A DNA stretch of 64,000 nt, taken from NCBI RefSeq assembly GCF_036489515.1, contig NZ_DASXFO010000067.1:4251-68250 (forward strand). Direction: 5' to 3'. This document shows positions 2-57,897 of the stretch, piece after piece. A program made the translations under genes and the position numbers. Positions within the stretch are counted from its first letter, which is position 1, and each line of letters opens with the position of its first letter. Origin of the DNA: Acidocella sp. (GTDB lineage: Bacteria > Pseudomonadota > Alphaproteobacteria > Acetobacterales > Acetobacteraceae). A model generated the notes under the pieces. That model was not told the origin of the DNA, ran no database searches, and saw nothing but the letters and a program-made list of their open reading frames with translations.

Positions 2-136
2 CGCGTGCTGCGCGAGGCGATGCTGCGCATCGGCGAGCGCCTGCCGCCGGTCCGCCACGCGATGGTGGCAAAGCTGATGGAGAAGACCACCAAGCCGCGC
101 GGGCCTCTCGGAGAGAGGAAAGCGGCCGCTTTTTAA
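2..136 (+). CDS. 3' end of an unidentified protein-coding gene (partial; 5' part lies outside the window)
   Basis: The frame is open from the window edge with strong G/C third-position bias. It ends ...GERKAAAF-TAA (134-136). The last codons and the stop lie inside repeat copy 1. Confidence 0.45.
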   Translation, partial: RVLREAMLRIGERLPPVRHAMVAKLMEKTTKPRGPLGERKAAAF

Positions 137-257
137 AAAAAGCGGCGCAAAAATTTTTGGTTATGCTGGGTCGTGGGCGTTGGCGCCGACGACGCCCATG
201 GCCCCAGGAGCAAAAAACTACTTTTTGTTCACAAAAAGTAGGCTTCCTCTTTGCTTG
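117..257 (+). repeat. Mosaic three-palindrome intergenic repeat, copy 1 (full length A-B-C)
   Basis: GA-rich left end, then module A GAAAGCGGCCGCTTTTTAAAAAAAGCGGCGC. Module B is the hairpin GCTGGGTCGTGGGCG...CGCCCATGGCCCCAG. Module C is CTACTTTTTG-TTCA-CAAAAAGTAG, followed by a CT-rich right end. Confidence 0.9.
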
Positions 258-313
258 TCACGGGCCGGCCAGCCACGCTTTTTTCGGCGCGGCATTGGTG
301 GCATAGTTTGGGA

Positions 314-2353
314 ATGAAATTTTATTCCCTCTACGCTCAGGGGTTTGCCCGCGTGGCCGCCTGCACCACCGAGACGGCGCTGGCGGACCCCGCCCGCAAT
401 GCCGAAGCCGTGCTGGCGGCTGCCCGTGACTGCCATGAGCGCGGCGTGGCAGTGGCGGTTTTCCCGGAACTGACATTGTCGGGCTATTCCATCGAGGATC
501 TGCTGCTCCAGGACACGGTTCTGGACGCGGTGGAAGATGTCATTGCTGTCTTGGTGGCGGCGTCAAAAGAGCTGTTGCCCGTGCTGGTCGTGGGCGCGCC
601 GTTGCGCCATGCCGGCCGGCTCTACAACACGGCGCTCGTCATCCATCGCGGGCGCGTCCTGGGCGTCGTTCCGAAATCCTATCTGCCGACCTATCGGGAG
701 TTTTACGAAGGGCGGCAAATCGCGGCCGGCGACGACCTTCGCGGAGACATCACCGTCGGGGGCCAGGCCGTCCCGTTCGGCAACAACCTCATTTTCGCCG
801 CCGAGGATGTGCGCGGCCTCGCGTTGCATGTGGAGATCTGCGAGGATTTCTGGGTCCCGGTGCCGCCGAGCGCGCTCGCTGCTTTGGCCGGGGCGACCAT
901 CCTCGCGAATCTCTCCGGCAGCCCGATTACGATCGGTCGTGCCGAGAGCCGGCGGTTATTGGCGCAATCGGCCTCCATGCGCTGCCTCGCGGCCTATATC
1001 TACGCCGCGGCGGGCGCCGGGGAGAGCACGACGGAAGTCGCCTGGGATGGCCAGGTGATGATTTACGAAAACGGGGTCTGCCTGGCCGAGGCGGAACGTT
1101 TCCCCGAAGCGGGGCAATCGGTCATCGCCGATATCGACCTGGATCTGCTCCGCCAGGAACGGATGCGGATGGGGACCTTCGATGACAATCGCCGGACCCA
1201 TGTGGCGGCGGATGCGTTCCGCACCATCTCGTTCCGGCTGGCCCCGCCGATGGGCAATCTCGGTCTGCAACGCCGCGTCGAGCGCTTTCCCTTCGTGCCC
1301 TCCGACCCCGCGCGGCTGGAACAGGATTGCTTTGAGGCCTACAACATCCAGGTTTCCGGTCTGGTCCAAAGGCTCCGCGCGACCGGCCTCAAGCATGTGG
1401 TTCTGGGCATTTCCGGCGGCCTTGATTCAACCCATGCCTTGATCGTCGCGGCCCGCGCCATGGATCGGCTGGGCCTGCCGCGGCGCAATATTCTCACCTA
1501 CACCATGCCGGGCTTTGCCACCGGCGAAGACACCAAGGCCAATGCCTGGCGCCTGATGACCAGCCTCGGCACCAGCGCCAGCGAACTCGACATCCGCCCC
1601 GCCGCGCGGCAGATGCTGGCCGATCTCGGTCATCCTTTCGGTCAGGGGGAGCCGGTTTACGACATCACCTTCGAGAACGTGCAGGCGGGATTGCGGACCG
1701 ACTATCTGTTCCGCCTCGCCAACCAGAACAATGCCTTCGTCATCGGCACTGGCGACCTCTCCGAACTCGCACTCGGCTGGTGCACCTATGGCGTCGGCGA
1801 CCAGATGTCGCATTACGCCGTCAATGCCGGCGTCCCGAAAACGCTGATCCAGCATTTGATTCGCTGGGTGGCGCGCTCCGGTGGGTTCGGCGATGCGGTC
1901 GGCGCCACGCTCGAAGCGATTCTGGACACGGAAATTTCCCCCGAGCTCGTCCCGGTCGAGGCCGGCGCCACGCTGCAGAGCACGGAAGCGAAAATCGGCC
2001 CTTATGCGCTGCAGGATTTCAATTTGTACTACACGCTGCGCCACGGTTTCCGGCCTTCGAAAATCGCCTTTCTGGCTTTGCATGCCTGGGGCGACGTACA
2101 GGCCGGGGCCTGGCCGGCCCATTTTCCCGAAACGCGGCGGACGCAATACAGCCTTGGCGAGATCCGGAAATGGCTGGAGCTTTTCCTGCGGCGGTTCTTC
2201 GCCTTCAGCCAGTTCAAGCGCTCCGCCATGCCGAATGGCCCCAAAGTGGTTGCCGGCGGCTCGCTCTCCCCACGCGGCGACTGGCGCGCGCCTTCCGACG
2301 GCAACGCCACGGCCTGGCTCGATGAGTTGGCGCGCAACGTGCCGAAGGCGTAA
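314..2353 (+). CDS. nadE: Glutamine-dependent NAD+ synthetase (long form)
   Basis: N-terminal nitrilase-type glutaminase domain ([16 protein letters not shown] Cys motif). C-terminal NAD synthetase domain with PP-loop ISGGLDST. I chose the ATG at 314 because the upstream start at 251 lies in repeat sequence. Confidence 0.9.
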
Positions 2354-2397
2354 AGCGGCCGCTTTTTTGTTCACAAAAAGAAGCCTTCCCCTTCACT
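2352..2397 (+). repeat. Mosaic repeat, copy 2 (internal-deletion derivative: left half of A fused to right half of C)
   Basis: AAAGCGGCCGCTTTTTTGTTCACAAAAAGAAGCCTTCCCCTTCACT. The junction falls in the shared T-run. It lies between convergent nadE and the small minus-strand gene. Confidence 0.8.
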
Positions 2398-2430
2398 AAA
2401 ACGGCCCGGGGCGGCGCACCGTCCCGGGCT
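2397..2430 (-). terminator. Candidate intrinsic terminator of the small minus-strand gene
   Basis: On the minus strand, GCCCGGG-12 nt-CCCGGGC is followed by CGTTTTAG, about 20 nt after the stop at 2448. Confidence 0.45.
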
Positions 2431-2447
2431 TTGAGAAGGCGCCGGGT

Positions 2448-2645: not shown

Positions 2646-2761
2646 GTTTCTCTCCTCTTGATTGTTTTGAAAGACGCCATTTTTGGCTCAGTTGATATAC
2701 GCCATCCACAGGCGTCGTTTTCTCATTATTTGTTTAATTGGAATTCATCATGGTGGATGGA

Positions 2762-2866
2762 GGAAAGCGGCCGCTTTTTGAAAAAAGCGGCGCAAAAACT
2801 CCTTGTCCTCTGGGCCTGAGGCTGTGAAACCAGCACGGCTCCAAAGAAGCCTTCCTTATCTTACCT
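2762..2866 (+). repeat. Mosaic repeat, copy 3 (module A + alternative module B' + right terminus; no B or C hairpins)
   Basis: GGAAAGCGGCCGCTTTTTGAAAAAAGCGGCGCAAAAA, then CCTCTGGGCCTGAGGCTGTGAAACCAGCACGGCTCCAAAGAAGCCTTCC. The B' core GAAACCAGCACGGC recurs inverted at 28212-28262. Confidence 0.7.
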
Positions 2867-2948
2867 AACCGACACATGACGTTACGGAAATGTGGTGCGG
2901 TATCCGGCATTTCCGATCTAAACTCGTGCCAGATATGGAGCGTCGAAT

Positions 2949-4369: not shown

Positions 4370-4376
4370 AGCGGTA

Positions 4377-4522
4377 GGAAAGCAGCCGCTTTTTAAAAAA
4401 AGCGGCGCAAAAATTTTGCTCCGCTGGGTCACGGGCGTTGTCAGCGACAAGCCCGTGACCCAGCATCAATAAAGCTTTTTTTGCTTCTTTTTGTTCACAA
4501 AAAGAAGCCTTCCCCTTTTCTT
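4377..4522 (+). repeat. Mosaic repeat, copy 4 (full length)
   Basis: A-B-C architecture. The B stem is GGGTCACGGGC/GCCCGTGACCC and the C stem is GCTTCTTTTTG/CAAAAAGAAGC, both compensated variants. Confidence 0.9.
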
Positions 4523-4544: not shown

Positions 4545-5198
4545 ATGCCCTGGACACGCGAACAGATGGCCGCGCGTGCGGCCCAAGAATTGAATGACGG
4601 CGACTACGTCAATCTGGGGATCGGCATCCCGACCCTGGTTGCCAATTACATACCGGACCATGTCGCGGTGACCTTGCAGAGCGAAAACGGCATGCTGGGG
4701 ATGGGCCCGTTTCCTGATCCGGCCGACGTCGATCCCGATCTCACCAACGCCGGAAAACAGACGATTTCTGCTCTTCCCACCTCGTCGTTCTTTTCCTCCG
4801 CCGAGAGTTTCGCCATGATTCGCGGCGGCCATATCGACCTTGCGATTCTCGGGGCGATGGAGGTTTCCGTAAAGGGCGATCTCGCGAACTGGGCCGTGCC
4901 TGGAAAATTCGTAAAAGGCATGGGGGGCGCGATGGATCTCGTCGCCGGGGTCAAACGCATCGTCGTGGTGATGGAACATACCTCGAGAGACGGCCACTCC
5001 AAGATCGTCGAAGAATGCAGCCTGCCACTGACCGGTGCGGGTGTGGTAGACTTGATCGTCACGGATCTCTGTGTGCTGGCCTGTGACAAGGTGAAGGGCG
5101 GTTTGACGCTGCGCGAGCTGGCACCGGGTGTGAGCCTTGATGAGGTAAGGCAGAAGACCGAAGCTGCCTTCAGGATAGAGGAAGCAGCCGCTTTTTGA
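4545..5198 (+). CDS. scoB: 3-oxoacid CoA-transferase, subunit B (no adjacent subunit A)
   Basis: N-terminus [16 protein letters not shown], catalytic-Glu motif LQSENG, and [15 protein letters not shown]. The last codons ...EEAAAF-TGA lie in repeat copy 5. Confidence 0.85.
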
Positions 5199-5322
5199 AA
5201 AAAGCGGCGCAAAAACTTTTACTATGCTGGGCCACGGGCGTTGTCCCCGACAAAGCCCATGGCCCAAATTAATAAAGTTTTTTTGCTACTTTTTGTTCAC
5301 AAAAAGTAGCCTTCTCTTACTC
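5180..5322 (+). repeat. Mosaic repeat, copy 5 (full length)
   Basis: A-B-C architecture. It fills the whole gap between convergent scoB and the ABC ATPase gene. Confidence 0.9.
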
Positions 5323-5323
5323 T

Positions 5324-6061
5324 CTACAGAATCTGACTAAGAAATGCCTGCGTTCGCGGATCGCGCGGGGCGGAAAAAAACTGCGCCGGCGGGGCGTGCT
5401 CGACGATCACGCCCCGATCCGTGAAATAGACCTCGTTTGCGACCTCGCGGGCGAAGCCCATTTCGTGGGTCACCAGGATGCAGGTCATGCCTTCTTCGGC
5501 GAGCTGGCGGATGGTCAGCAGAACTTCACCGACGGTTTCCGGATCGAGTGCGGCGGTTACTTCGTCGAAGAGCATCAGATCCGGCTTCATTGCGAGTGAC
5601 CGCGCGATGGCGACACGCTGTTGCTGCCCGCCGGAAAGCTCGCCCGGGTAGGCATGTTCCTTGCCCTCGAGACGAACTTTCTTGAGCAAGGCGTAGGCTT
5701 CCGCTTCGACCTCTTTTTTGGGACGCTTCAGCACCTGGATTGGCGCCATCATCACGTTCTGCAGCGCGGTTCGGTGCGGAAACAGATTGTACTGCTGGAA
5801 TACCATGCCGACATGCTTGCGCAGCTTCAGCTTGTCGAGCTTAGGGTCGTTCACCTCGATGCCCAACACCTTGATCGAGCCGATTTCGAACGGCACCAAC
5901 GCGTTGACGCAGCGGATCAAGGTCGATTTTCCGGATCCCGACGGGCCGATAATGCAGGCGACGTCGCCCTTCGAAACAGCAAGACTAACGCCCTTGATGA
6001 CTTCGACATGGCCGAATGATTTGTGCAGATTGTCGATGACGACGAGTGGTTCGGTGGTCAT
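5324..6061 (-). CDS. Polar amino-acid ABC transporter, ATP-binding protein
   Basis: Walker A GPSGSGKST, signature LSGGQQQRV, Walker B LMLFDE. The ATG at 6061 lies just after the upstream stop. Confidence 0.9.
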   Translation of the reverse strand: MTTEPLVVIDNLHKSFGHVEVIKGVSLAVSKGDVACIIGPSGSGKSTLIRCVNALVPFEIGSIKVLGIEVNDPKLDKLKLRKHVGMVFQQYNLFPHRTALQNVMMAPIQVLKRPKKEVEAEAYALLKKVRLEGKEHAYPGELSGGQQQRVAIARSLAMKPDLMLFDEVTAALDPETVGEVLLTIRQLAEEGMTCILVTHEMGFAREVANEVYFTDRGVIVEHAPPAQFFSAPRDPRTQAFLSQIL

Positions 6062-6062: not shown

Positions 6063-6911
6063 TCAGTTCCGTACCTGATAGCGGCGTTCAAGGCGTTGGG
6101 TCGCCCATGCGATGGGATAGGTATAGATGAAGAACATCAGCAAGACATAGGCGTAGATGGGCGCCAGCAGGTTGGGCCGGCTGCCTTCCGCCGCCAGGAC
6201 CTGGCCGGCCAGCGTCACCACCTCGTTCACGCCGACGATCGAGGCGAGTGTCGTCGAGGTGGTGAGGATGGCGTAAAGGTTCATCCACGGCGGCAGCATG
6301 CGTTTCACGCTCTGCGGCAGGATGATCAGCCATAGTTGCTGTCGCCTCGTGAAGCCGAGTGATTCGGCGGCTTCCCATTGGCCGGGAGGGATCGAGAGCA
6401 CCCCGCCGCGCACGATCTCCGCGACGTTGGCCATGACCGGTAGAGCGAGGCCGATCACCGCCTTCAGCCAGCCCGGGAGGCTGATGGTGTGCGACCCGAC
6501 ATGGATCTGGAAGGGCAGCAGAAAGATCATGAAAAACAGCAGGACCAGCCAGGGGGCATTGCGGAAGAACTGGGTCAGCAGCCAGGACATCGCGCGGGTC
6601 GGCCGGGATGGTGTGATCAGTCCGAGGCCGAGAAACGCCCCCAGGACCGTTCCGATGGCCATGGAGAGGAAGCTGATGAGTATGTTCAGCCCGAAACCGC
6701 GCAACAGCAGGGGGGTCCAGTTTGCGAGGACGGCCAGCACGCCGGCCTGCGTGGCCTGTCCCGTTGCGGCATCGGCGGCAGCCGACGAGAAGAGGATAAT
6801 GGCCGCCAACACGATGCCATGCCAGGGGGCCAGCCGTAGCGTCGGCAGACCGCCCGGCTGGCGTTGCAAAGTCGCATTCAGTGGCAGGATGACGGGAAAT
6901 TTCGCGCTCAT
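6063..6911 (-). CDS. Amino-acid ABC transporter permease
   Basis: Multi-TM protein with EAA-loop EAAESLGFTRRQ. The start overlaps the upstream stop (ATGA). Confidence 0.85.
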   Translation of the reverse strand: MSAKFPVILPLNATLQRQPGGLPTLRLAPWHGIVLAAIILFSSAAADAATGQATQAGVLAVLANWTPLLLRGFGLNILISFLSMAIGTVLGAFLGLGLITPSRPTRAMSWLLTQFFRNAPWLVLLFFMIFLLPFQIHVGSHTISLPGWLKAVIGLALPVMANVAEIVRGGVLSIPPGQWEAAESLGFTRRQQLWLIILPQSVKRMLPPWMNLYAILTTSTTLASIVGVNEVVTLAGQVLAAEGSRPNLLAPIYAYVLLMFFIYTYPIAWATQRLERRYQVRN

Positions 6912-8889: not shown

Positions 8890-9750
8890 ATGAACACCAG
8901 TCATCCAGCTCTGGCGGCCGGACGTGTCGCCGTCATCACCGGTGCGGCGAATGGCATCGGCCTCGCGGCCGCCAAGCGCTTTGCTTCCATGGGTATGAAA
9001 ATCGTCATGGCGGACCTGGCGTCAGAGGCCCTGCAGCTTGCGGCGCACGAAGTTGCGGCGGTGCAGCCGAACGGTCAGGCCGAGGTTCTGGTGGTCGCGA
9101 CCGATGTCAGCGATCTCGGCCAGGTCCAGGCGCTGGCGGACGCCGCTTACAGTCGCTTCGGTGAAGTGGCCGTGCTGATGAACAATGCGGGGATCGGTAA
9201 CGGCGGCGGGCCGTGGGAGCATATCGATCGTTGGCGGAAGGTCCTGGAGGTCAATCTGTGGGGCGTCATCAACGGCGTGCAGACATTCGCGCCGCGGATG
9301 CTGGCGCAAAAGACCGCCGGCGCCATCATCAATACCGGTTCGAAGCAGGGGATCACCTGCCCGCCGGGCAATACCGCCTATAACGTCAGCAAGGCCGGGG
9401 TGAAGGTGATGACCGAAGCTTTGGCGCATAGCCTGCGGAATGAGGCGGGCGCCCACATCTCCGCGCATCTGCTGATCCCGGGCTCGACCTTTACGGAAAT
9501 GACCCGCGCGGGTCTGACCGGCAAGGAAAGCACGGCCTGGACCGCGGATCAGGTGATCGACATGCTGGTGACAGAGATGGCGGCGGGCACGTTCTACATC
9601 CTCTGCCCCGATAACGAGGTGACACGCGATGTGGATAACCGCCGTATCCTCTGGGCCGCGCAGGACGTGATCAAAGGACGTCCGGCATTGTCGCGCTGGC
9701 ACGCTGACTACAAGGATGAGTTTCAGCGGTTTTTGAACGCCGATAAGTAA
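8890..9750 (+). CDS. Short-chain dehydrogenase/reductase
   Basis: ITGAANGIGLA (TGxxxGxG) and YNVSKAG (YxxxK). Confidence 0.85.
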   Translation: MNTSHPALAAGRVAVITGAANGIGLAAAKRFASMGMKIVMADLASEALQLAAHEVAAVQPNGQAEVLVVATDVSDLGQVQALADAAYSRFGEVAVLMNNAGIGNGGGPWEHIDRWRKVLEVNLWGVINGVQTFAPRMLAQKTAGAIINTGSKQGITCPPGNTAYNVSKAGVKVMTEALAHSLRNEAGAHISAHLLIPGSTFTEMTRAGLTGKESTAWTADQVIDMLVTEMAAGTFYILCPDNEVTRDVDNRRILWAAQDVIKGRPALSRWHADYKDEFQRFLNADK

Positions 9751-9889
9751 AAGAAAGTAGCCGCTTTTTAAAAAAAGCGGCGCAAAAACCTTTGCTAATG
9801 CTGGGCCATGGGCTTTGTCGGGGACAACGCCCATGGCTCAGGAGCAGAAAACTACTTTTTGTTCACAAAAAGTAGCCTTCCCTTCACTA
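9751..9889 (+). repeat. Mosaic repeat, copy 6 (full length)
   Basis: A-B-C architecture with the GAAAGTAGCCGC variant of A. The right terminus ...CCTTCACTA contains the pqiC stop codon (minus strand). Confidence 0.9.
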
Positions 9890-10474
9890 TTCTTGGAGGG
9901 CCGCCTGCGCCACGCCGGCAGCGATCTGATCGGCGGCGGACGCCCATAAAGCGCTCATGGCGGCGACAACATCGGGTGCCGTGGCGCCGGAGGCGAGCGT
10001 GCGGTTGATGGTCTGCACGCTCAGCAATGTATGGCCAGCGCCGGCTTTCAGGGCCACCTGCATGGTCAGTTCGACGGCGCCCACGGACGGATCAAAACGC
10101 AGCACGTTGATTTCGACCTGCAAATCGGACGGCATTTCGATGGAGCCGCCGCTGTCGATGACGGTGGCGCCGTTCAAGCGCTGCGCCAGATCTTCGACCA
10201 TCGTCGTTTGCAGCGTGTCGGCGAATGGACCGGCCCAGACGGAGTTGGGGAATGAACCGGCTTCGAAGCGGCTGACCGGCGTGGGGACGTTGCCCTGGTC
10301 GAGATAGGCAGGGATGCTGATCCGGCGGACGCTGATGGTGAGGGGCGCGACGTGCTCGATCGGCCCCGGCTCACTCGCCAACCGGTATTGTGTCACCGGC
10401 GCCGAGGTGCAGGCCGCGGTGAGGGCGGTCACCATGAAGGCGGCGATGGCACGGATCGATCGAGCCCGGTTCAT
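9887..10474 (-). CDS. pqiC: PqiC-type ABC-transport auxiliary lipoprotein
   Basis: Lipobox LTAAC. It follows pqiB with an ATGA overlap. Confidence 0.75.
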   Translation of the reverse strand: MNRARSIRAIAAFMVTALTAACTSAPVTQYRLASEPGPIEHVAPLTISVRRISIPAYLDQGNVPTPVSRFEAGSFPNSVWAGPFADTLQTTMVEDLAQRLNGATVIDSGGSIEMPSDLQVEINVLRFDPSVGAVELTMQVALKAGAGHTLLSVQTINRTLASGATAPDVVAAMSALWASAADQIAAGVAQAALQE

Positions 10475-12078
10475 TGGTTGCCCCGTCCCAGAAGCAACGC
10501 CTGAGGGTGGCGGTTCAGATAGTCCGCCAGCATCCTGATGGAACGCAGAGTGTCGTTTGCCTCATTCATGAGTTGGTCCAGGTTGCGTTGGAAATCTGAA
10601 TCGTTGCCGTAGGTTTGCGTCACCGTCTGCAGCGTGCCGTTCGCATTGCGCAGCGTCTTGTTGAGTTCCGTCAGGCTTTGTCCGATTTGCGGATTGGACA
10701 GTGTGCCGTTAGCCGTGGTCAGCAGCTTGTTGAGGTTGTTGCTGAGCTGATCGAAGGGCACTTTCGACAGATTGTTGGAGATGCTGGCGAGGGAATTGAT
10801 GATGTCGTCGAGTCCGCCGGACTGGCTGGGAATGACCAGGGCATCACCTTCTTTGGTGATCTTTGTCGGTTTGGCGCCGGCGATCCAGGCAAACGTAATC
10901 TCTTTCTGGCCGGTGACGTAGCTGACGGTGTCGAGCTGCGCGCGCAGGCCTTGATCGACCATTTTCTGGAGAACCTGGTCAGGACTTAGGGTCTTGGGGA
11001 ATTGTCCGGCCTCCAGAACGCGTTCCGGCTGGATCTCCATGAACACCCTGGCCTTGGCTGTGCCGGCGTAGGGATCGATGATGAGCTTGACGCTTTGCAC
11101 CACGCCGATCTGGATGCCGAGAACATCGACTGGTGCGCCGTGTGCCAGGCCCGCGACGGAGCTGGTGAAGTAGGAAACAACCGGAATTTGGTTCTGGTAG
11201 CCGGCGGATTTGGCGTCGTCGTGGGAGTCGAACAGGGGAAACACGGCGTTGTCGGGGCTGGGCGCGCTGCCCCTGCCTTCAAGTGGCAGATCGAAGGTCA
11301 CGCCTCCCGAGATGATGGCTTGCAAGGACTGAAATTCGATATGGAAGCCGCCGTTCTGAAATTGGGCGGTGATCCCGGACGATTTCCAGAAATGACTTTG
11401 TGGACGAATCAGATGGTCGAAGGGCGCTCGGACAAAAATATCCACGGTGACCGGGCCGAGACCGTTCCCGATATCATATCCAAGCACTTCGCCAACGACG
11501 ATGTCACGGTAGAAGACGGGCGAGCCGGCGGCCAACGAGCCGATGGTTTCGGTTTTCAGCTGGTAGGTTTGGCCCGGCTCGTCGGAGCGCACACCAGGGG
11601 GGCCTTCCAGGCCGGTAAAATGGTCTTGGTATTGGCCACCGGGCAGCCCCGGGTCGACGGCGATATAGGCGCCGGAGACGAGCGTCTCGAGGCCCGATAT
11701 GTTGCTGGCGCTAAAATTGGGCCGCACGACCCAGAACCGGGCATGGGAGGTGAGGAAGCGCCTGCCGATATCGTTCATGCGCACCCGGACCACCACCTGG
11801 CTGTTGTCGCTGCTGAGATCGACGCTTTCCACGGTGCCGAGGGCGACGGCCTTGTACTTGACCTGCGTCTGACCGGCCGTAATGCCTTCGCCGCTGGTAA
11901 AGGTGACGGTTAGCAGTGGCCCCTGTTCAAGAAGCGTTCGATACCCCAGATAAACGGCAATGACCGCGGCAATGAGCGGTACCAGCCAGACAAGGGAAAA
12001 GCGCGGGCGACGCACATGCGCGGGCGGCGGACTTTGCGGGGGCGGCGCGTTGCTGGTGGCGGGAGCGTCGACAGGCAT
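10471..12078 (-). CDS. pqiB: PqiB (MCE/MlaD-domain intermembrane transport protein)
   Basis: N-terminal TM segment followed by repeated MCE-like segments. I chose the ATG at 12078, just after the pqiA stop. Confidence 0.8.
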   Translation of the reverse strand: MPVDAPATSNAPPPQSPPPAHVRRPRFSLVWLVPLIAAVIAVYLGYRTLLEQGPLLTVTFTSGEGITAGQTQVKYKAVALGTVESVDLSSDNSQVVVRVRMNDIGRRFLTSHARFWVVRPNFSASNISGLETLVSGAYIAVDPGLPGGQYQDHFTGLEGPPGVRSDEPGQTYQLKTETIGSLAAGSPVFYRDIVVGEVLGYDIGNGLGPVTVDIFVRAPFDHLIRPQSHFWKSSGITAQFQNGGFHIEFQSLQAIISGGVTFDLPLEGRGSAPSPDNAVFPLFDSHDDAKSAGYQNQIPVVSYFTSSVAGLAHGAPVDVLGIQIGVVQSVKLIIDPYAGTAKARVFMEIQPERVLEAGQFPKTLSPDQVLQKMVDQGLRAQLDTVSYVTGQKEITFAWIAGAKPTKITKEGDALVIPSQSGGLDDIINSLASISNNLSKVPFDQLSNNLNKLLTTANGTLSNPQIGQSLTELNKTLRNANGTLQTVTQTYGNDSDFQRNLDQLMNEANDTLRSIRMLADYLNRHPQALLLGRGNQ

Positions 12079-12079
12079 T

Positions 12080-13408
12080 TTACGGGGTTCCGGGTTCCAG
12101 ATCGCGCGCGTGATGGGCATGGATTTGTGGTGCTTCGGCCGCGTCCCACATTAGACGCGGGTCGAAGGTGGAAACGGCGAACATCGTCAGCACGACGACG
12201 GCGGCAAAGCACGCGGCGCCCACTTCGGCGCGTACATAGGCGATTTCGCCGAAATGCACGAGTGCGACCAGAATCGATATCATGAAGACGTCAATCATTG
12301 ACCAGCGGCCGATGAATTCCACGATTTTGAAAGCATGGGTCCGGCCGACCAGGCGGCTGCTGCTGCCGGCCTGGGTGAGGATGAGCATGTATGCCAGGGA
12401 TATGAGCTTGGCGAGGGGAATGACCATGCTGGCAAAAAACACCAGAAGTGCCAGCGGCCATAGGCCATAACTCTCAAGTTCAACGATGCCGCCCATGATG
12501 GTGAAGGAATGGGAAGTTTCCAGCTGGGTAATCAGCATGACCGGGTAGATGTTCGCGGGCATGTAAAGGAGGGCTGCGGCGATCATCAGAGCCCAGCTGC
12601 GGCTGATGCTATAAGGCTTGCGATGGTGCAGGATTTCCTCGCAGCGGTGGCATCGTTCACCGGGATGGGCATGGTTGACCATGCCGCAGGCATGGCAGCC
12701 GATGTACGTGAAAGCCGGTCGATCGGCAGGCTGACGCGCAACATTTTCCGGGGCGGAAGGGCTGTCAGCCTCATGCAAGGCGCGCCAGACGGCCTCCTTG
12801 TCGAGGGCGGCATCGGCGGCGGCCATGGAGATCATCAAGCCGATGAGAAGATAAACTGCGGTGTCGAGATGAACCGTGGCGATGGCGGTGAGGCGCGTAT
12901 AAGCGACCAGAAACCCGAGGAGATAGACATCGATCATGGCCCAGGGAGCGACCGTTCCGTAGAAACGAAAGATCCTTTTGAGCACGCGGGGCGCCACAAA
13001 CCGGGTCTCCAGTCCAATCAGCGTGACCAGCATGATGCCAAGCTTGAGGCCGGGAAATATGACGGTGACGGCCAGGACGAGCAGGCCGACATTGGAGAAG
13101 TGCTGCAGGATCAGGCGCACAGGGCCGGTTTCAAGAAAGGCGAGTTGAAATCGCCCATACACCGAGATCTCCAGAAACGGCGCCACCAGCGCGAATATAT
13201 AAAACAGCAGGGCCGCAAGACCGCAGGCAAGAGGAAATTCAAACGGGACTCTCCGCATGCGCCACAAGGTATAATGACAGCGTGGGCAATCCGCGACCAG
13301 GCCCGGACGCATGTCCGGGAGGACCGAAAACAGGCCGCATCTTGGGCATTCCCGCCAAGCCTCGGTCGGTGATCCACAGGTCAATGTCGCCACGCCGGAA
13401 CCGGGCAT
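12080..13408 (-). CDS. pqiA: PqiA (paraquat-inducible protein A family)
   Basis: Two zinc-finger-like CxxC pairs (CPRC...CPRC and CHAC...CHRC), each followed by TM blocks. Confidence 0.8.
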   Translation of the reverse strand: MPGSGVATLTCGSPTEAWRECPRCGLFSVLPDMRPGLVADCPRCHYTLWRMRRVPFEFPLACGLAALLFYIFALVAPFLEISVYGRFQLAFLETGPVRLILQHFSNVGLLVLAVTVIFPGLKLGIMLVTLIGLETRFVAPRVLKRIFRFYGTVAPWAMIDVYLLGFLVAYTRLTAIATVHLDTAVYLLIGLMISMAAADAALDKEAVWRALHEADSPSAPENVARQPADRPAFTYIGCHACGMVNHAHPGERCHRCEEILHHRKPYSISRSWALMIAAALLYMPANIYPVMLITQLETSHSFTIMGGIVELESYGLWPLALLVFFASMVIPLAKLISLAYMLILTQAGSSSRLVGRTHAFKIVEFIGRWSMIDVFMISILVALVHFGEIAYVRAEVGAACFAAVVVLTMFAVSTFDPRLMWDAAEAPQIHAHHARDLEPGTP

Positions 13409-13636
13409 TACAAAGTGTGGTCTTGAGGGCTTGTCATTGCTTCGCCGGGGAAGGCGGCAACAGATGACTCGTTGCGCTGCGGAAATTCAGTGATTTACCC
13501 TTTCGATCAAGCTTCTGTGTCATGGTTCCGTGCAGATTTAGGCGATATGCTTTTCAGTCTGCAAGTCATGGGCGCTGGCGCCGACACGAGCGGCCGGGGC
13601 CGAGTCCCTTTTTACAGGATATGGGGAGCCGGAAGC

Positions 13637-14464: not shown

Positions 14465-14514
14465 GGCGGTCGTGTAACGTTTGCCAGACGTATCGGCAAT
14501 GTAGGCTGGAAAAA

Positions 14515-14660
14515 GGAAGCAGCCGCTTTTTAAAAAAAGCGGCGCAAAAACTTCTTCTATGCTGGGCCATGGTCATTGTCGGCGACAACGCCCATGGCCC
14601 CAAGTTAACAAAGTTTTTTTGCTTCTTTTGGTTCACAAAAAGAAGTCTTTCCTCTTGCTT
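14515..14660 (+). repeat. Mosaic repeat, copy 7 (full length, slightly degenerate)
   Basis: A-B-C architecture. It lies between tandem minus-strand genes. Confidence 0.85.
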
Positions 14661-14683
14661 GCCCCTGCAGCTTCTAACTTTTT

Positions 14684-15697: not shown

Positions 15698-15796
15698 GGA
15701 AATCTCCTAAAATAACTTGATGCTAATGTTGCTCTTCATGAAAATTTTCAAGTGCAGGATCAAGAGCCGCCTGTCTCGTGCTCCAGGCCGGCTTCT

Positions 15797-15952
15797 GGGA
15801 GAGAGGAAAGCGGCCGCTTTTTAAAAAAAGCGCCGCAAAAATTTTTATTGTGCTGGGCCATGGGCGATGTGACCGACAACGCCCATGGCCCAGCATAAAT
15901 AAAGTTTTTTTGCTTCTTTTTGTTCACAAAAAGAAGCCTTCCCCTTCGCTTC
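15797..15952 (+). repeat. Mosaic repeat, copy 8 (full length)
   Basis: A-B-C architecture with the GGGAGAGAGG left terminus also seen in copy 1. It lies in the divergent promoter region between the ADH gene and mmsA. Confidence 0.9.
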
Positions 15953-16059
15953 CTCGAGGTGCTTGCCCCTCGCCGGATCTGGACTAAAGTTCCAGATGAT
16001 CTTAAAAAATCGAATTCATTAAAGGCAAAAACTAAAATAATCGAAGGGAGTTTACGGCG

Positions 16060-17571: not shown

Positions 17572-17584
17572 TATCCTGCGTGCA

Positions 17585-41737: not shown

Positions 41738-41740
41738 AGC

Positions 41741-47743: not shown

Positions 47744-47789
47744 ATTTCCCCCAAAACAGATCAGCGCCCGGCCAAGTGCCGTGCCAACT

Positions 47790-47980
47790 GACCCCCCTCT
47801 GTTTTGGGACCTGAGAGATTCGGGCGCGGTGACGCCCTTGACCCCGTCGGTGCGGCGGAGATTCGCCGGCTTTCCAGAGTGTCCCGCTTACGAACGCAGC
47901 CCTTTTGCCTGAGCGTTTCCGGGGGCCGGTTGCGCCTTCGGCGGCGGGTAAAGTCCCCCGCTCTCTCCTGCGTCCGAATA
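47790..47980 (-). promoter_or_regulatory. Tandem glycine riboswitch (two aptamers) in the gcvT leader
   Basis: Minus-strand aptamer 1: ACGCAGGAGAGAG...CGCCGAAGGCGCAA...CTCAGGCAAAAGGGCTGCGT. Aptamer 2: CTCTGGAAAG...GCACCGACGGGGTCAA...CTCTCAGGTCCCAAAACAGAGG. Confidence 0.9.
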
Positions 47981-48046
47981 AGGACACCGCATAGTGACGC
48001 AGGGGCCGAGTTTTGCAAAGCTAATTTTCAGGTCGTGGAGGCATCA

Positions 48047-48160
48047 GGCAAAGAGAAGACTACTTTTTGTGAACAAAAAGTAGCAAAAAAACTTTGTTAT
48101 GCTGGGCTATCGGCTTTGTCTGGGACGAGGCCCATGGCCTAGGCTTCTTTCCTATCTCCA
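48047..48160 (-). repeat. Mosaic repeat, copy 17 (inverted; C intact, B degenerate, A absent)
   Basis: AGAAGACTACTTTTTGTGAACAAAAAGTAGCAAAAAAACTTTGTTATGCTGGGCTATCGGC...CCCATGGCCTAGGCTTCTTTCC. Confidence 0.75.
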
Positions 48161-49157: not shown

Positions 49158-49471
49158 TGGTCACGCTCGAGCGGCTGCGCCTGGAGATCAGCGGCCTCGA
49201 CGAGGCCGAGCTGGAACGCTGGATCGACGCTGCCCTGGTCCGCGCCGAGGGGGCGGAAGGCGCGCGGCTGTTCGAGGAGATCGACGTCGCGCGCATCCGG
49301 TTGATTTTCGAGCTGCGCCACGAATTGGACATCGAGGAACAGGCGCTGCCGGTGGTGCTGTCACTGATGGACCAGCTCTACGACCTGCGCCGGCACGGCG
49401 CGAAACTCAACGCAGCGCTGGCGGACCTGCCCGTGGAGGTCCGCCAGGCCATTTTGCGCCGGCTTGGTTAA
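49154..49471 (+). CDS. cbpM: Chaperone-modulator protein CbpM (MerR-like fold)
   Basis: 105 aa. ATGA overlap with cbpA. Confidence 0.75.
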
Positions 49472-49622
49472 GGAGAAGAAAGCACTACTTTTTGTGAACA
49501 AAAAGTAGCAAAAAAACTTTGCTCTGCTGGGCCATGGGCGTTGTCGCCGACACAGCCCCAGGCCCAGAGTCGCAAAAGTTTTTGCGCCGCTTTTTTTAAA
49601 AAGCGGCTACTTTCCTTTACCT
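49472..49622 (-). repeat. Mosaic repeat, copy 18 (full length, inverted)
   Basis: C-B-A order on the plus strand. It lies between convergent cbpM and pdxJ, and the pdxJ TAA lies in the left terminus. Confidence 0.9.
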
Positions 49623-51928: not shown

Positions 51929-52108
51929 ATGACCTTGATTCTGATCATCGTGCTGCTGGTCCTGATTTTTGGCGGCGGCGGCGGGTATTACGCACACCGC
52001 TCCTACGGCGGTTATGGTTCCGGCGGCTTGCTCGGCGTCATCCTTATCGTGCTGATCGTGGTCTGGCTGTTCGGCGGGTTCGGGGGGCCGGGCTATTATC
52101 ATTATTAA
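51929..52108 (+). CDS. Small Gly/Tyr-rich two-TM membrane protein (59 aa; DUF3309-like), below the ORF-track cutoff
   Basis: MTLILIIVLLVLIFGGGGGYYAHRSYGGYGSGGLLGVILIVLIVVWLFGGFGGPGYYHY. GGGGAGAG SD 5-6 nt upstream of the ATG. Confidence 0.55.
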   Translation: MTLILIIVLLVLIFGGGGGYYAHRSYGGYGSGGLLGVILIVLIVVWLFGGFGGPGYYHY

Positions 52109-52262
52109 AGCGAAGCGGAAGACTACTTTTTGTGAACAAAAAGTAGCAAAAAAACTTTGTTAATGCTGGGTCATGGGCGTTGTCAGTGACAACGCCCATG
52201 ACCCAGCATAGCCAAAAGTTTTTGCGCCGCTTTTTTTAAAAAGCGGCCGCTTTCTTGCCTGA
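52109..52262 (-). repeat. Mosaic repeat, copy 19 (full length, inverted; B is a perfect 22-3-22 palindrome at 52163-52209)
   Basis: ATGCTGGGTCATGGGCGTTGTC-AGT-GACAACGCCCATGACCCAGCAT. Confidence 0.9.
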
Positions 52263-53575: not shown

Positions 53576-53998
53576 ATGAAGCCTTTATATTACGCACACG
53601 GCCACGCCACCGGCGGCCGCACCGGCCAAGGTGCGAGCGATGACGGAAGGTTGTCGGTGCAGCTCAGCACGCCCAAGGAACTGGGCGGCGATGGCGGGCC
53701 GGGCACCAATCCGGAGCAGATGTTCTCCATCGGCTATTCCGCCTGTTTCCTCGGCGCGATGAAATTCGTCGCCGGCAAAGAGAAGGTGCAGCTGCCGCCG
53801 GAAACGAAAGTGTCGGCCGAGATCGGCATCGGCCCACGCGATGACGGCGCCGGATTCGGCATCACCGCGGCGCTGACGATCACCGCACCCGGCGTGGAAA
53901 AAGCCGCTCTCGAAGATCTGGTGCAGAAGGCGCATATCGTCTGCCCCTATTCCAACGCCATCCATAAGACGGTGGACGTGAAGCTCACCGTCGCCTGA
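53576..53998 (+). CDS. ohr: Organic hydroperoxide resistance protein (Ohr/OsmC family)
   Basis: Conserved Cys contexts GYSACFLGA and HIVCPYSNA. GGAGG SD. Confidence 0.85.
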   Translation: MKPLYYAHGHATGGRTGQGASDDGRLSVQLSTPKELGGDGGPGTNPEQMFSIGYSACFLGAMKFVAGKEKVQLPPETKVSAEIGIGPRDDGAGFGITAALTITAPGVEKAALEDLVQKAHIVCPYSNAIHKTVDVKLTVA

Positions 53999-54141
53999 GG
54001 CAAGGAAGGCTTCTTTTTGTGAACAAAAAGAAGCAAAAAAACTTTTTTATGCTGGGCCATGGGCGTTGTCAGCGACAACGCCCATGGCCCAGCGGACCAA
54101 AAATTTTTGCGCCGCTTTTTTTAAAAAGCGGCTACTTCCCT
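53999..54141 (-). repeat. Mosaic repeat, copy 20 (full length, inverted)
   Basis: C-B-A order on the plus strand. It lies between convergent ohr and the LysR gene, and the LysR TAG stop lies in GAAGTAGCC of the left terminus. Confidence 0.9.
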
Positions 54142-55013
54142 GCCATCGCCTCCTCCACAAAACTGGCGAATTGCCTGGCCTTGGCGCTGGCCATGCGGCC
54201 GGTGGGAAACACCACCCACAGGTCGATCGGCGGCAAGGTCCAAGCTTGCAGTAGTTTTCTCACGGCGCCGCTCGCCAGTTCAGGCGCGAACATCCAGTCC
54301 GAGGCGATGGTCAGGCCGATATCGGCCAGCACCGCGGCGCGCAGGCCTTCCGCAGCGCTTGTCCGCACGCGCCCGTGCACCGCAACCGACACCGCCGCGC
54401 CATCGCGCATGAATGACCAGACGCTCGGCATTTGGCTGTAGACCACCGTCTCATGTTCGGCGAGATCCGCCGGGCTGTGCGGTTCTCCAGCCTTTGCGAG
54501 ATAGCCGGGTGTCGCGAACACTGATCGCCCTCCGGTCGCCAGCTTGCGCGCCACCGCCGACGAGTCAGCTAACGCCCCCATGCGCAGCGACAGATCCACC
54601 CCTTCGGCAACCAGGTCGATCACGCGATCGTCGAGGATGATTTCGATGTCGAGCTCGGGATGGGCCTCGAGAAAACGCGGCAAGATCGGCATGATGTGCA
54701 AGCGCGCGAAGGTAGTCGCCGCCGAGACGCGCAGCCGGCCGGTCAGCCCCGCGCCTGCGCCGCGCGCGGCGATTTCGGCTTCATCGGCCTCCTGAATCGC
54801 GGCGCGGGCGCGCTCGTAGAAGCGTAAGCCCGCCTCGGTCGGGCTGAGGCCGTGCGTGGAGCGGATCAGCAGGCTCACCTGCAGCCGGGTCTCCAGTTGA
54901 GCAATTGTTTTGGAGATCGCCGGCTGGCCGACATTCAGCTGGCGCGCGGCTGCGGAAAAAGAGCCGGTTTCCACCACCCGCACGAAGGTCGCCATTGCCT
55001 GATGCCGGTCCAT
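54132..55013 (-). CDS. LysR-family transcriptional regulator (divergent from the peroxiredoxin-like gene)
   Basis: HTH MATFVRVVETGSFSAAARQLNVGQPAISKTIAQLE. ATG at 55013. Confidence 0.85.
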   Translation of the reverse strand: MDRHQAMATFVRVVETGSFSAAARQLNVGQPAISKTIAQLETRLQVSLLIRSTHGLSPTEAGLRFYERARAAIQEADEAEIAARGAGAGLTGRLRVSAATTFARLHIMPILPRFLEAHPELDIEIILDDRVIDLVAEGVDLSLRMGALADSSAVARKLATGGRSVFATPGYLAKAGEPHSPADLAEHETVVYSQMPSVWSFMRDGAAVSVAVHGRVRTSAAEGLRAAVLADIGLTIASDWMFAPELASGAVRKLLQAWTLPPIDLWVVFPTGRMASAKARQFASFVEEAMAGK

Positions 55014-55810: not shown

Positions 55811-55861
55811 TGCAACCAGAACGTCCCCCGTACCGTACCGGTGCGGGGGGCGGATGTTGCT

Positions 55862-56686
55862 CTAGCCTTGGATGAAAGCCAGCAGGTCGGCGTTGATGGT
55901 GGCCGCCTCGGTCGTCGGCATGCCGTGCGGGAAGCCTTTATAGGTTTTCAGGGTGCCGTTTTTTACCAGTTTCGCCGAGAGTGGCCCGGAATCGGCATAG
56001 GGCACGATCTGGTCGTCATCGCCATGCATCACCAGCACCGGCACCGAGATCTTCTTCAGGTCTTCGGTGAAGTCGGTCTGTGAGAAGGCGACGATGCCGT
56101 CATAATGCGCCTTGGCCCCGCCCATCATGCCTTGGCGCCACCAATTCCAGATCACGCCCGGCGCGGGCTTCGCGCCGGGCCGATTGTAGCCATAGAACGG
56201 TCCGGACGGCACATCGTAATAGAACTGGGCGCGGCTGGCGGCGAGTTGGGCCTGCAGCCCGTCGAATACCTCCTTGGGCAGGCCTCCCGGATTGGCCTCC
56301 GTTTTCACCATCAATGGTGGCACCGCGCTGATGAGCACCGCTTTCGCCGCGCGGCTTTCGCCGTGGCGCGCCAGATAGTGCACCACTTCGCCGCCCCCCG
56401 TGGAGTGGCCGACATGCACCGCGTCCTTCAGATCCAGATGTGCGGTCAGAGCCGCGAGGTCGTCGGCATAATGATCCATGTCATGGCCGCTGCCGGTCTG
56501 CGTGGAGCGGCCATGGCCGCGCCGGTCATGCGCGATCACGCGGAAGCCCTGGGCGAGGAAGAAGAGCATCTGCGTGTCCCAATCGTCCGCCGAGAGCGGC
56601 CAGCCATGGCTGAACACGATGGGCTGCCCCATGCCCCAGTCCTTGTAGAAGATTTCGGTGCCATCCGTGGTGGTGATCGTAGACAT
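55862..56686 (-). CDS. Alpha/beta hydrolase of the non-haem haloperoxidase (chloroperoxidase) type
   Basis: N-terminus [26 protein letters not shown], and nucleophile elbow GHSTGG. Confidence 0.8.
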
Positions 56687-57174
56687 GAGCTCGACCCTTT
56701 CCTGTTGGGAAGCTGAACAGCCCTGATGTCGATCGACGTCGATCGCGGCATGGAAAACGTGCGGAACGTCGACCTATAATGCTATGATAAACGAGATATT
56801 GTCAGGCGCCGCAGCGTTACATTCCCATGCAACGCTGTCACGAGCGACCAAAGCTGCGGCAGGATTTTGTGAGGCACAGCAAGTGATCACGAAACACCGG
56901 GATTATCTCAACCTAACGATCTCTCAATGGCAATTCAAGCCGATTCGGTTTATCGCTACGTTAGCTCCTGGAATTGAATTTTCCTTATATAATGCACGAA
57001 ATTAAAAATTCTGTTCCGACCCTGAAGAGTTGCAGCCTGCTCTCGTTTATACGGCAATGATCTCAATTATCGATTTGTTTTTTCTTTAAGATTTTATCGG
57101 TCAAACTGAAATCTAATTGAGCCGCAATACCGTCAACTTCGGACACGACCATAAAACCAAAAAGGGACACAACC

Positions 57175-57711
57175 ATGAGCAAGACGACATCCGCAGGCAA
57201 AACGCACACGCGGGAATATCTTGGTACACCAACTGATTTAACAGCGGAGGCCACGAAAGATATTTCCGCTGCCTTGAGTGGATTGCTGGCCGACGCTTTT
57301 GCCCTTTACATGAAGACGAAAAATTTCCACTGGCATATGAGTGGCCGCCACTTTAGAGACTACCATCTGCTGCTCGACGAGCACGCGACGCAAATTTTTG
57401 CCATGACGGACCCGATTGCCGAACGGGCGCGCAAAATTGGCGGCACGACACTGCGCTCCATTGGCCAGATTTCCAAGCAGCAACGTATCCTCGACAACGA
57501 CGCGGACTATGTCGAACCGCAGGACATGCTGGCCGAATTACGCGATGACAACAAGCAGCTGACGTCAAGCTTGCGGCAGGTCCATAATGTCTGCGACGAA
57601 TATGGCGACGTCGCCACCGCGAGCCTGCTTGAAACCTGGATCGATGAAACCGAGCGGCGCACCTGGTTCCTCTTCGAAGCAACCCGCGACACTTTTGGCC
57701 ATAACGAATAG
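57175..57711 (+). CDS. dps: Dps-family DNA-protection/ferritin-like protein
   Basis: Ferroxidase-site context KNFHWHMSGRHFRDYHLLLDEH. Confidence 0.9.
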   Translation: MSKTTSAGKTHTREYLGTPTDLTAEATKDISAALSGLLADAFALYMKTKNFHWHMSGRHFRDYHLLLDEHATQIFAMTDPIAERARKIGGTTLRSIGQISKQQRILDNDADYVEPQDMLAELRDDNKQLTSSLRQVHNVCDEYGDVATASLLETWIDETERRTWFLFEATRDTFGHNE

Positions 57712-57737
57712 GCCGCTCTAGACCGGCTTATCGGGTA

Positions 57738-57897
57738 TAAGAAAGCAGCCGCTTTTTAAAAAAAGCGGCGCAAAAATTTTTGGTCCTCTGGGCCATGGGC
57801 GTTGGGCGTTGTCACCGACAACGCCCATGGCCCAGATTATAGAAGTTTTTTTGCTACTTTTTGTTCACAAAAAATAGTCTTCCCTTGCACTTACCTC
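57738..57897 (+). repeat. Mosaic repeat, copy 21 (full length; 7-nt tandem duplication GGGCGTT in the left arm of B)
   Basis: A-B-C architecture. It lies between convergent dps and the PQQ-propeller gene. Confidence 0.9.

Follow-up and report, generated by a model that had tools for sequence, protein, structure and literature searches.

Several families of short palindromic repeats that lie between genes have been described in bacteria. Repetitive extragenic palindromic (REP) sequences and bacterial interspersed mosaic elements (BIME) are found in Enterobacteria and Pseudomonas, and in Escherichia coli there is roughly one BIME per 15 kb. Correia elements of Neisseria, also called NEMIS, have terminal inverted repeats of 26 bp, duplicate a TA target, and are reported to affect transcript ends and processing. 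ERIC (or IRU) elements are enterobacterial; RIME elements are alphaproteobacterial and confined to Rhizobiaceae. It has long been debated whether REP-like elements chiefly terminate transcription, stabilise mRNA or are parasites. Here we analyse a repeat of about 150 nt, composed of three hairpins (A, B and C), in a stretch of 64,000 nt from Acidocella sp. (contig NZ_DASXFO010000067.1, positions 4,251 to 68,250); below, "the window" means this whole stretch. It looks like an unnamed family of composite palindromic intergenic repeats in Acidocella-related Acetobacteraceae, of the same general kind as REP/BIME, ERIC, Correia elements or miniature inverted-repeat transposable elements (MITEs). 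We think it probable that this REP/BIME- or MITE-like family is mobile, that its core resembles a bidirectional intrinsic terminator and that hairpins A and C are recognition sites.

The repeat is found at 22 loci of the window. Fifteen copies are full, a further one has its first hairpin substituted, and six are truncated or rearranged; all 22 add up to about 2.9 kb, or 4.5% of the window (overall GC content 61.6%), at a density of about one copy per 3 kb. These numbers agree well with an initial annotation made from the sequence of the window, which had listed 16 full and 6 partial copies with a total of about 2.8 kb. Searching for the 26-nt module C (GCTACTTTTTGTTCACAAAAAGTAGC, at most 3 mismatches), we obtained 27 strand-hits compared to 0 expected in shuffled sequences, and the 43-nt pattern of module B gave 7 matches, again compared to 0 expected. 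A de novo repeat search recovered families of 14-18 copies. From an alignment of the 15 full copies (mean column identity 81%) we built an nhmmer profile and a covariance model, both of which recovered every locus listed by the annotation. Uptake signal sequences (DUS/USS) could be ruled out, since all 27 module C matches are intergenic and lie inside the composite element.

The element is dispersed, as had been predicted, and not confined to the window. We scanned a collection of species-representative genomes with the exact module C pattern and collected at least 114 stretches (811 kb). All listed matches come from metagenome-assembled genomes (MAGs) of Acetobacteraceae/Rhodospirillales from lakes, peat and soil; among their labels we find Acidocella sp., one Rhodovastum MAG and several MAGs labelled "Asaia bogorensis". 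Within the 811 kb, the profile detected at least 200 elements (99 of full length) from at least about 28 species-level genomes, and many of the listed loci have 2-5 copies per 8 kb. Furthermore, 20 IMG/VR contigs carry the element. As a control of specificity, we scanned 80 unrelated pdxJ loci from metagenomes, mostly of distant taxa, and found no profile match. There was also no match among 72,556 plasmids and 50,697 phage records.

The proposal that the family has no name is supported by the database searches. At gathering thresholds, Rfam gives only glycine riboswitch matches in the window; in E-value mode, no model scores higher on a copy than a generic miRNA hairpin, with 33.6 bits against a threshold of 100. 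Full-text literature searches for two diagnostic strings gave no match. A survey of GTAG/CGTC REPs (Di Nocera 2013, PMC3733652) reports that CGTC repeats are missing in Acetobacteraceae, and the present element is not described there.

When copies from different species are aligned, the order of the parts is constant: a purine-rich end, hairpin A, an A-tract spacer, hairpin B, a run of seven T (T7), hairpin C and a pyrimidine-rich end. The consensus reads nAAGnAAG; A, with a species-variable stem of 4-7 bp and a constant T5-6 (G) A6-7 centre; CAAAAA(A)CTTT; B; AAAG T7 G; C, which itself reads CT(A/T)CTTTTTG-TTCA-CAAAAAG(T/A)AG; and CTTnCTT. As an exemplar we use the full copy at 33690-33840 (+ strand, as are all its parts). 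Its purine-rich 5' end GAAGAAAG (33693-33700) is followed by hairpin A (GCGGCCGC-TTTTT/AAAAAAA-GCGCCGC, 33700-33726) and by the A-tract spacer AAAAATTTTT (33727-33736), which is CAAAAAACTTT in most species. Hairpin B (33737-33793) consists of a GC-rich core (33742-33784) with a 3-nt loop and an AU-rich extension at its base (CTTT...AAAG). Directly past this base come T7 (33794-33800), hairpin C (GCTACTTTTTG-TTCA-CAAAAAGTAGC, 33801-33826) and the pyrimidine-rich 3' end CTTCCCTTGCTCT (33827-33840). In flank profiles, the purine fraction is 0.8-0.99 at the 5' end, with the information climbing from a point about 14 nt upstream of A's T-run; the pyrimidine fraction is 0.9-1.0 over about 8 nt of the 3' end and stays raised until about +20. 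The two ends pair in the minimum free energy (MFE) fold. We considered a copy-specific closing stem between them and rejected it, because their complementarity is merely compositional (z about 3.5, a tiny effect).

Two minor details of the initial annotation have to be corrected. The NotI site GCGGCCGC, said to be usual in module A, is limited to 7 of the 15 full copies; in the others we read GCAGCCGC or GTAGCCGC. The 3-nt loop of module B is indeed hypervariable (9 different triplets among 16 copies), but the fold gives B a stem of about 28-30 bp including the AU-rich extension, and not of about 20 bp. Across species B measures 39-73 nt and is highly variable in sequence, with a median dG of -23 kcal/mol on either strand. 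It is always framed as A5-6 CTTT [hairpin] AAAG T7; of 78 parsed copies, 74 have an A-run of 5-6 and 69 have exactly 7 T. The loop triplets form partly reverse-complement pairs (AGC/GCT, GGC/GCC, CCC/GGG; e.g. 33762-33764 and 54071-54073), and copies with an imperfect left arm of B tend to have GGN loops. The paired triplets could reflect a flip-flop inversion of the hairpin tip or shared subfamilies, and subfamilies explain them equally well.

In some species hairpin A is nearly identical to C minus its four loop bases, for example TCTTCTTTTTACAAAAAGAAGC compared to GCTTCTTTTTGTTCACAAAAAGAAG. Therefore A and C are paralogous and the whole unit is pseudo-palindromic, which is also why the profile matches every copy on both strands. 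Either strand reads as a small hairpin, an A-tract, a strong hairpin and a U-run.

We wanted to know whether the predicted structure is reflected in the pattern of substitutions. At minimum free energy a single strand forms a four-way junction, the z-score being -9.4 for the + strand, -7.9 for the - strand and -8.0 when folded as DNA. In a model-fitted alignment of 150 matches, standard pairs occupy 93.2% of the cells compared to 77.3% in shuffles, and both sides have changed in 41 of the 47 pairs. We obtained a covariation score of 0.334; shuffled alignments give 0.102 (none of 500 shuffles reaches the observed value), and alignments with the partners slid give at most 0.075. Since this alignment was fitted to the structure and contains both strands of many loci, we also counted the arms in an anchored, alignment-free way. 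Among 48 unique arm pairs from the different species, 44-47 have a Watson-Crick pair at each of the stem positions 1-4 of hairpin A, next to the T/A tracts, and the stem occurs in eight types (CCGC/GCGG, GTTC/GAAC, CTTC/GAAG, GCGC, GTGC/GCAC, GCTC/GAGC, GTCC/GGAC and CTCC/GGAG). The base of hairpin C is compensated as well (CTTC/GAAG in 55 copies, CTAC/GTAG in 29), and its loop-closing pair is G-C in 78 copies and C-G in 12, while the TTCA loop remains unchanged.

G·T wobbles and A·C intermediates are nearly absent from the stems, without an asymmetry between G·U and A·C, and the two strands of B fold equally well. We conclude that the constraint does not distinguish between the strands, which fits a both-strand or DNA-level function better than a one-strand RNA. 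A family of cloverleaf-shaped non-coding RNA genes with their own expression and a function in trans would agree with the stable, covarying four-way junction. On the other hand, there are no promoter-like sites in or beside the copies, the copies lie in both orientations relative to the genes and fold equally well on both strands, and the internal T7 would end a transcript just past B. Furthermore, Rfam has no match, ARAGORN makes no call, and the copy number extrapolates to thousands per genome. We consider such RNA genes very improbable. A tRNA-like cloverleaf in particular was discarded on the ARAGORN result.

To see which parts of the element are conserved, we compared ten orthologous copies whose flanks are 77-93% identical (mean 85.6%). 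Hairpin A is 91% identical at these sites, spacer 1 95%, and spacer 2 with T7 91%; these figures are not inflated, whereas the 95% of hairpin C is biased upward because the loci were fetched by an exact C pattern. Conservation is lowest at the termini (59% identity for the 3' flank). Within B, the outer part is about 70% and the inner part 42% identical. In three pairs the inner B is of a different type, type 1 (GGGCGTTGTC-nnn-GACAACGCCC) being replaced by type 2 (…GGCGTTGAAACCAGCAC…), even where the identity of the flanks is 91.5%. The window has both types, type 2 being found at 2758 and 28212. We also see the orientation reversed at two orthologous pairs, namely the copy at 17587-17736 compared to 6277-6481 of locus L019 (from an "Acidocella sp." MAG, syntenic with 10879-19387 of the window at about 80% identity), and L052 5975-6105 compared to L102 470-600. 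These swaps and in-place inversions point to exchange, possibly by gene conversion, between dispersed copies that can align either way. The differences in conservation suggest that A, C and the A/T spacers are constrained in their sequence, and B in its structure only.

Next, we compared occupied and empty sites. L019 lacks the copies found at 14510 and 15801 of the window; at the first of these sites it has a simple GC hairpin and then TTTTCT past the same stop codon. The site of the copy at 17587-17736 is occupied in L019 too, but there A and C are swapped and the right arm of B has an insertion of 54 nt. Cleaner cases came from an all-against-all comparison of the sampled loci. L205 has a near-consensus copy exactly between a TAA stop codon and the GGAG ribosome-binding site of the following gene in a phage-tail operon; L204 and L208 are empty there, and these relatives have only TAAGGGGAGAACTGATCCATG at the insertion point (the junction was read by hand). 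In two empty relatives of L024, L108 and L062, the stop codon of one gene overlaps the start codon of the next (TGATG), and in L024 a copy lies between the two genes. Finally, L089 has a copy in place of a plain GC-rich hairpin that is present in L037. A target duplication at the two clean junctions (L205 and L024) could comprise at most 1-2 nt, and over 99 copies the longest direct repeat between the flanks is no longer than expected (4.51 nt, compared to 4.39±0.09 in shuffled partners). In summary, orthologous sites that are filled in one genome and empty in another show that the element still moves or did so until recently. No target duplication could be detected on insertion, which typically takes place directly after a stop codon, as in two of three clean comparisons of filled and empty sites.

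The annotation had stated that no gene of the window explains the repeat. This is borne out by Pfam, which finds housekeeping functions and no transposase, integrase or HUH gene among the open reading frames (ORFs) of the window. We found no pairs of half-elements 0.3-5 kb apart, as a parent element would give, in the 114 loci and the window. Searches for a Y1/HUH gene (RAYT, IS200) by tblastn and a motif regular expression were negative in about 1.1 Mb, which is a small part of each genome and was searched with approximate queries, so that the power was low. A 137-aa ORF beside the copy in L205 was considered as a HUH enzyme and rejected, as it looks like a coiled-coil membrane protein of the lysis type.

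An ordinary non-autonomous MITE moved by a DDE-type transposase would have many of the observed properties. Its size, AT-rich ends, inverted symmetry (AAGnAAG…CTTnCTT), high copy number, truncated copies and presence/absence polymorphism all fit; the pseudo-palindromic ends would be its terminal inverted repeats, and the position at gene ends would reflect tolerated insertions without any host function. The adjacency to stop codons could even follow from the fact that AT-rich targets cluster there in a genome with 62% GC. However, target duplications are missing both statistically and at the two cleanest junctions, and no longer element with the same ends was seen in the sampled loci. The internal hairpins covary, A and C are more conserved than the flanking coding DNA of species that are 77-93% identical, and it is the termini that are conserved least. 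We therefore regard a DDE-type MITE as unlikely.

The lack of a target duplication agrees better with a REPIN- or IS200/IS605-style element, in which single-stranded DNA is mobilised by a HUH (Y1) enzyme (RAYT, TnpA) that recognises A and C, with B as a passive cargo. Two similar subterminal hairpins at both ends (nearly identical in some species), a structure-based conservation and the persistence across many species, which resembles that of REPIN/RAYT pairs, are what one would expect, and one subfamily has GTAG/CTAC at the base of hairpin C. On the other hand, this GTAG is not conserved and CTTC/GAAG is commoner, the two clean junctions share no conserved flanking target tetranucleotide, there is no bias of orientation relative to genes, and the enzyme did not turn up in the limited sample searched. 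Taken as a whole, such a HUH-driven element seems rather unlikely to us. Integron attC/VCR sites can be dismissed: the copies are found in both orientations and their neighbours are housekeeping genes (gcvTHP, pdxJ, nadE, speE), there is no integrase among the window ORFs, and the ends are AAGnAAG and CTTnCTT. Likenesses of hairpin C or the ends to DnaA boxes, LexA boxes and attC were judged by eye to be coincidental or not to hold.

The position of the copies relative to genes was analysed in the window with metagenome gene calls (contigs Ga0376660_0000069 and Ga0376660_0001391 of JGI metagenome 3300036790, on which the genes of the window occur). Nine of the ten convergent junctions are filled by a copy, or eight of nine if one 69-aa hypothetical ORF is left out, which is in agreement with the earlier impression that most operon boundaries are occupied. 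Frequently both stop codons are only a few nucleotides away from the ends of the element. For example, the full copies at 5175-5324 (+; stops 5198 and 5324) and 9748-9890 (+, without T7; stops 9750 and 9887) fill their gaps, the one at 49470-49619 (-; stops 49471 and 49617) does so exactly, and the one at 53995-54144 (-; stops 53998 and 54132) overlaps both stop codons. Convergent gaps are also filled by the full copy at 17587-17736 (-; stops 17571 and 17741) and by a rearranged copy at 28211-28373 (-; stops 28210 and 28374). The latter combines an extended hairpin A (28327-28372), about 75 nt of unrelated GC-rich DNA, and a type-2 B remnant with the end of C (28212-28260). Two further full copies lie in convergent gaps: at 38191-38341 (-) the minus-strand gene ends within hairpin A (stop 38318), and the copy at 57735-57892 (+) has a 7-nt tandem duplication in the left arm of B (GGGCGTT GGGCGTT, at 57787-57813). 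The only convergent junction free of the repeat, 55811-55861, has a plain GC-rich hairpin (CCCCCGTACCGTACCGGTGCGGGGG) without a flanking T-run.

For the statistics of position we used rough ORF calls over the window and all fetched loci. No element lies inside an ORF. Of the intergenic regions between convergent genes, 56% are occupied, compared to 27% between co-directional and 14% between divergent ones; note that the absolute values are inflated, as every locus had been selected because it carries a copy. Copies begin 0-20 nt past stop codons; the upstream stop codon lies at a median distance of 2-19 nt and the downstream start codon at one of 58-76 nt. Between co-directional genes 28 copies have the same and 42 the opposite orientation, so there is no bias. 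We also considered the element as a supplier of stop codons in every frame. This was ruled out, since only 38-42% of the copies close all three frames, compared to 83% of random sequence with 45% GC, and the two cleanest empty sites have the stop codon even without the element. Being so poor in stop codons, the element is a source of spurious gene calls. The metagenome annotation has small ORFs or extended gene starts over the copies at 15760-16065 (-), 34922-35053 (-) and 51929-52108 (+), and at the start of the DLH gene (27251).

A position that is independent of orientation, with convergent junctions nearly saturated, would also be expected of a DNA-level host element. According to this explanation, A, C and the phased A/T tracts bind a nucleoid-associated protein or a topoisomerase and relieve supercoiling between convergent genes, much as REP and BIME bind gyrase and IHF (integration host factor) in E. 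coli, and the copies spread by gene conversion. The strand-symmetric pairing constraint with almost no wobble intermediates, the sequence conservation of A, C and the spacers, and the module swaps and flips at fixed sites, which point to gene conversion, are all in favour. However, the clean de novo insertions in operons and in a phage-tail gene cluster speak against it, and so does the covariation of base identity in the stems, which a sequence-specific duplex-binding protein would not tolerate. We find a purely DNA-level host function quite improbable.

This brings us back to the reading that we prefer, i.e. a mobile repeat with a terminator-like core and two recognition hairpins. Its B core, with an A-run of 5-6, a GC-rich hairpin and T7, has the frame of an intrinsic terminator, although the base of the stem is AU-rich and not always predicted to be paired. 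B would thus be an orientation-independent, bidirectional intrinsic terminator or a 3'-end RNA hairpin. Such a role would explain why copies are kept at gene ends, why convergent junctions are nearly saturated, why the orientation does not matter and why ordinary hairpins have been replaced; relatives carry a plain GC hairpin in the element's place at two orthologous sites, in one case followed by TTTTCT. Hairpins A and C would be recognition sites, because they are conserved more strongly than the neighbouring coding DNA; most plausibly they would serve a trans-acting factor, which may be a mobilising enzyme or a DNA- or RNA-binding host protein. Because target duplications are missing and the conservation is structure-based, we would favour a spread that recognises hairpins, by way of single-stranded DNA or of recombination and gene conversion, over a cut-and-paste DDE transposase.

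Several points weigh against this reading. Termination by the B frame is a prediction from sequence. The GC-rich part of B is separated from T7 by 8-12 nt of AU-rich stem, which is suboptimal for an intrinsic terminator, and this AU-rich stretch is predicted to be unpaired in a sizeable minority of the copies. A generic terminator scan did not flag B, the counts in the window being at chance (23 vs 23.7; 24 vs 18.3); the terminator/promoter scan picks hairpins A and C and is uninformative. Two window copies (113 and 9748) have no T7, and some copies lie in divergent promoter regions or, within operons, between a stop codon and the next start codon, where strong termination would be harmful. 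The conservation of A and C, quite apart from the upward bias mentioned for C, could be due to gene conversion among the copies instead of selection on each of them. To these points we have to add that no mobilising gene was found in about 1.1 Mb.

Going one step further, the element may be a self-propagating 3'-end cassette with a bidirectional-terminator cargo, in which A and C are the handles of an enzyme. Such a cassette would insert precisely after stop codons without duplications, by hairpin recognition, and displace ordinary terminators clade-wide. We regard this extension as possible but doubtful. If it is true, the element is the standard gene-end signal in a whole clade of Acetobacteraceae.

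The remaining copies of the window are found in various surroundings. A full copy at 113-256 (+), supported by the profile, the alignment and the covariance model, lies between co-directional genes upstream of nadE; it belongs to the subfamily without T7 (spacer AGGAGCAAAAAA). This subfamily (205-217 and 9839-9851) has AGGAGCA(A/G)AAAA instead of the AAAG-T7 spacer and also occurs among the copies of L060 and L090. Directly 3' of the stop codon of nadE (2353) lies a copy from which B is deleted and in which the left arm of A is joined to the right half of C (2352-2397, +), and a partial copy at 2758-2867 (+) consists of A, a type-2 B (…GTGAAACCAGCAC…) and a truncated end of C. The full copy at 4373-4522 (+) begins 4 nt past a stop codon (4369), and its end is 23 nt away from the next gene (4545), while those at 27156-27306 (+) and 41740-41888 (+) overlap a stop codon (27159-27161) and abut that of speE (41885), respectively. 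Full copies also lie downstream of an ADH gene of the minus strand (14510-14660, +) and in divergent regions (15801-15951, +, and 52108-52259, -). Among the incomplete copies, the one at 34075-34158 (-) comprises the right arm of B, the T-run and a C variant (CTAATTTTTGTTCACAAAAACTAG), the one at 34849-34977 (+) has intact B and C with A replaced by a short hairpin (GAAGTAAGCAGCCGCTTACTTC), and the one at 41228-41268 (-) is a degenerate C-like remnant with a weak profile match (E = 0.0037). A copy without A (48045-48157, -) lies between a glycine riboswitch and a dnaJ-like gene. It sits immediately upstream of this riboswitch, which is a tandem one with two aptamers (69.6 and 45.7 bits) at 47789-47980 (-), upstream of gcvT-gcvH-gcvP. 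Between the repeat-bearing regions there is also an operon of prkA, a DUF444 gene and a spoVR-like gene (18973-23752, -), a conserved stress/starvation cluster that is unrelated to the repeat.

Some observations concern the contigs outside the window. The IMG/VR contig L205 (1-14558), which comes from the same metagenome as the window genes, encodes a Baseplate_J protein. Many of the repeat-bearing IMG/VR contigs (L203-L220) are mutually syntenic with 77-99% identity and share a module of Baseplate_J and glycine-rich tail-fibre genes; they represent a phage-tail-like cluster (a prophage, tailocin or similar) kept across several hosts, with copies of the repeat between its genes and one insertion polymorphism. 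Adjoining a copy in L204 (2147-3148) and L205 (2119-3170) is a segment of about 1 kb with genes for small membrane or coiled-coil (lysis-like) proteins. It is absent in L215, which suggests gain or loss of genes at the edge of the element. Two Logan contigs of run SRR11833918 (L198 and L200) encode identical proteins and end 28-56 nt into the repeat; short-read assemblies break in the element, and the same insertions exist in the sample of this run. Looking up exact proteins for empty sites at the strain level yielded only contigs that are broken within the repeat. In practice the element is thus a hazard for this clade, both because contigs break within it and because gene callers make spurious ORFs across its copies.

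How does the element compare with the known systems? The interpretation of the initial annotation, a dispersed mosaic palindromic repeat analogous to BIME, RIME and Correia elements, is supported, and the present analysis adds the covariation across species, the frame of A-tract, hairpin and T7, the insertion at stop codons without target duplication and the contrast between conserved A and C and a fast-changing B. Like REP and BIME, the element is an extragenic, palindromic mosaic of high copy number that is enriched at 3' ends and between convergent genes, with compensated stems and no target duplications. It differs in that REPs are units of 20-40 nt in variable arrays, whereas here we see a fixed module of three hairpins and about 150 nt, with no evident sequence similarity to them and with an explicit frame of A-tract, hairpin and T7. 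The GTAG/CGTC head that defines REPs is not found: GTAG/CTAC occurs in one subfamily of C only (29 copies), where it is paired and not an unpaired head, and a RAYT was not found in the roughly 1.1 Mb sampled with approximate queries. Correia elements are similar in their size of about 100-155 bp, their inverted-repeat ends, their hundreds of copies near genes and their presence/absence polymorphism. However, they duplicate TA whereas no duplication was found here, the ends of the present element are inverted only in composition, and both taxon and sequence differ. ERIC/IRU and RIME share with it the imperfect palindromes (about 110-130 bp), the location in transcribed intergenic regions of one family and the pseudo-palindromy of the whole element, but by their descriptions they have no conserved core of A-tract, hairpin and T7 and do not occur at the present density.

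Bidirectional intrinsic terminators likewise have an A-tract, a GC-rich hairpin and a T-tract on both strands, lie past stop codons and between convergent genes, and have hairpins constrained in structure only. Ordinary ones are, in contrast, unique sequences without two extra conserved hairpins, and in the present element the GC core does not directly adjoin the T-run. According to a recent study, REPs in 3' untranslated regions terminate transcription partially and stabilise mRNA (bioRxiv 10.64898/2026.03.23.713779), and the terminator-like appearance of the B frame would be in line with this report on E. coli REPs. The debate on the role of REP-like elements can be tested directly here, in a new lineage, because the frame is explicit and nearly all convergent junctions are occupied. 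The element is also a clear case for separating selfish spread from use by the host, with a B that is constrained in structure only and swapped, and with A and C more constant than the neighbouring genes. If the density in the whole genome equals that of the window, the element would be among the most abundant small repeats reported in bacteria. In summary, the class of repeats is well known; what sets this family apart is its density, its range across a bacterial family, its fixed design of three hairpins, and the combination of conserved hairpins A and C with a swappable, terminator-like core.

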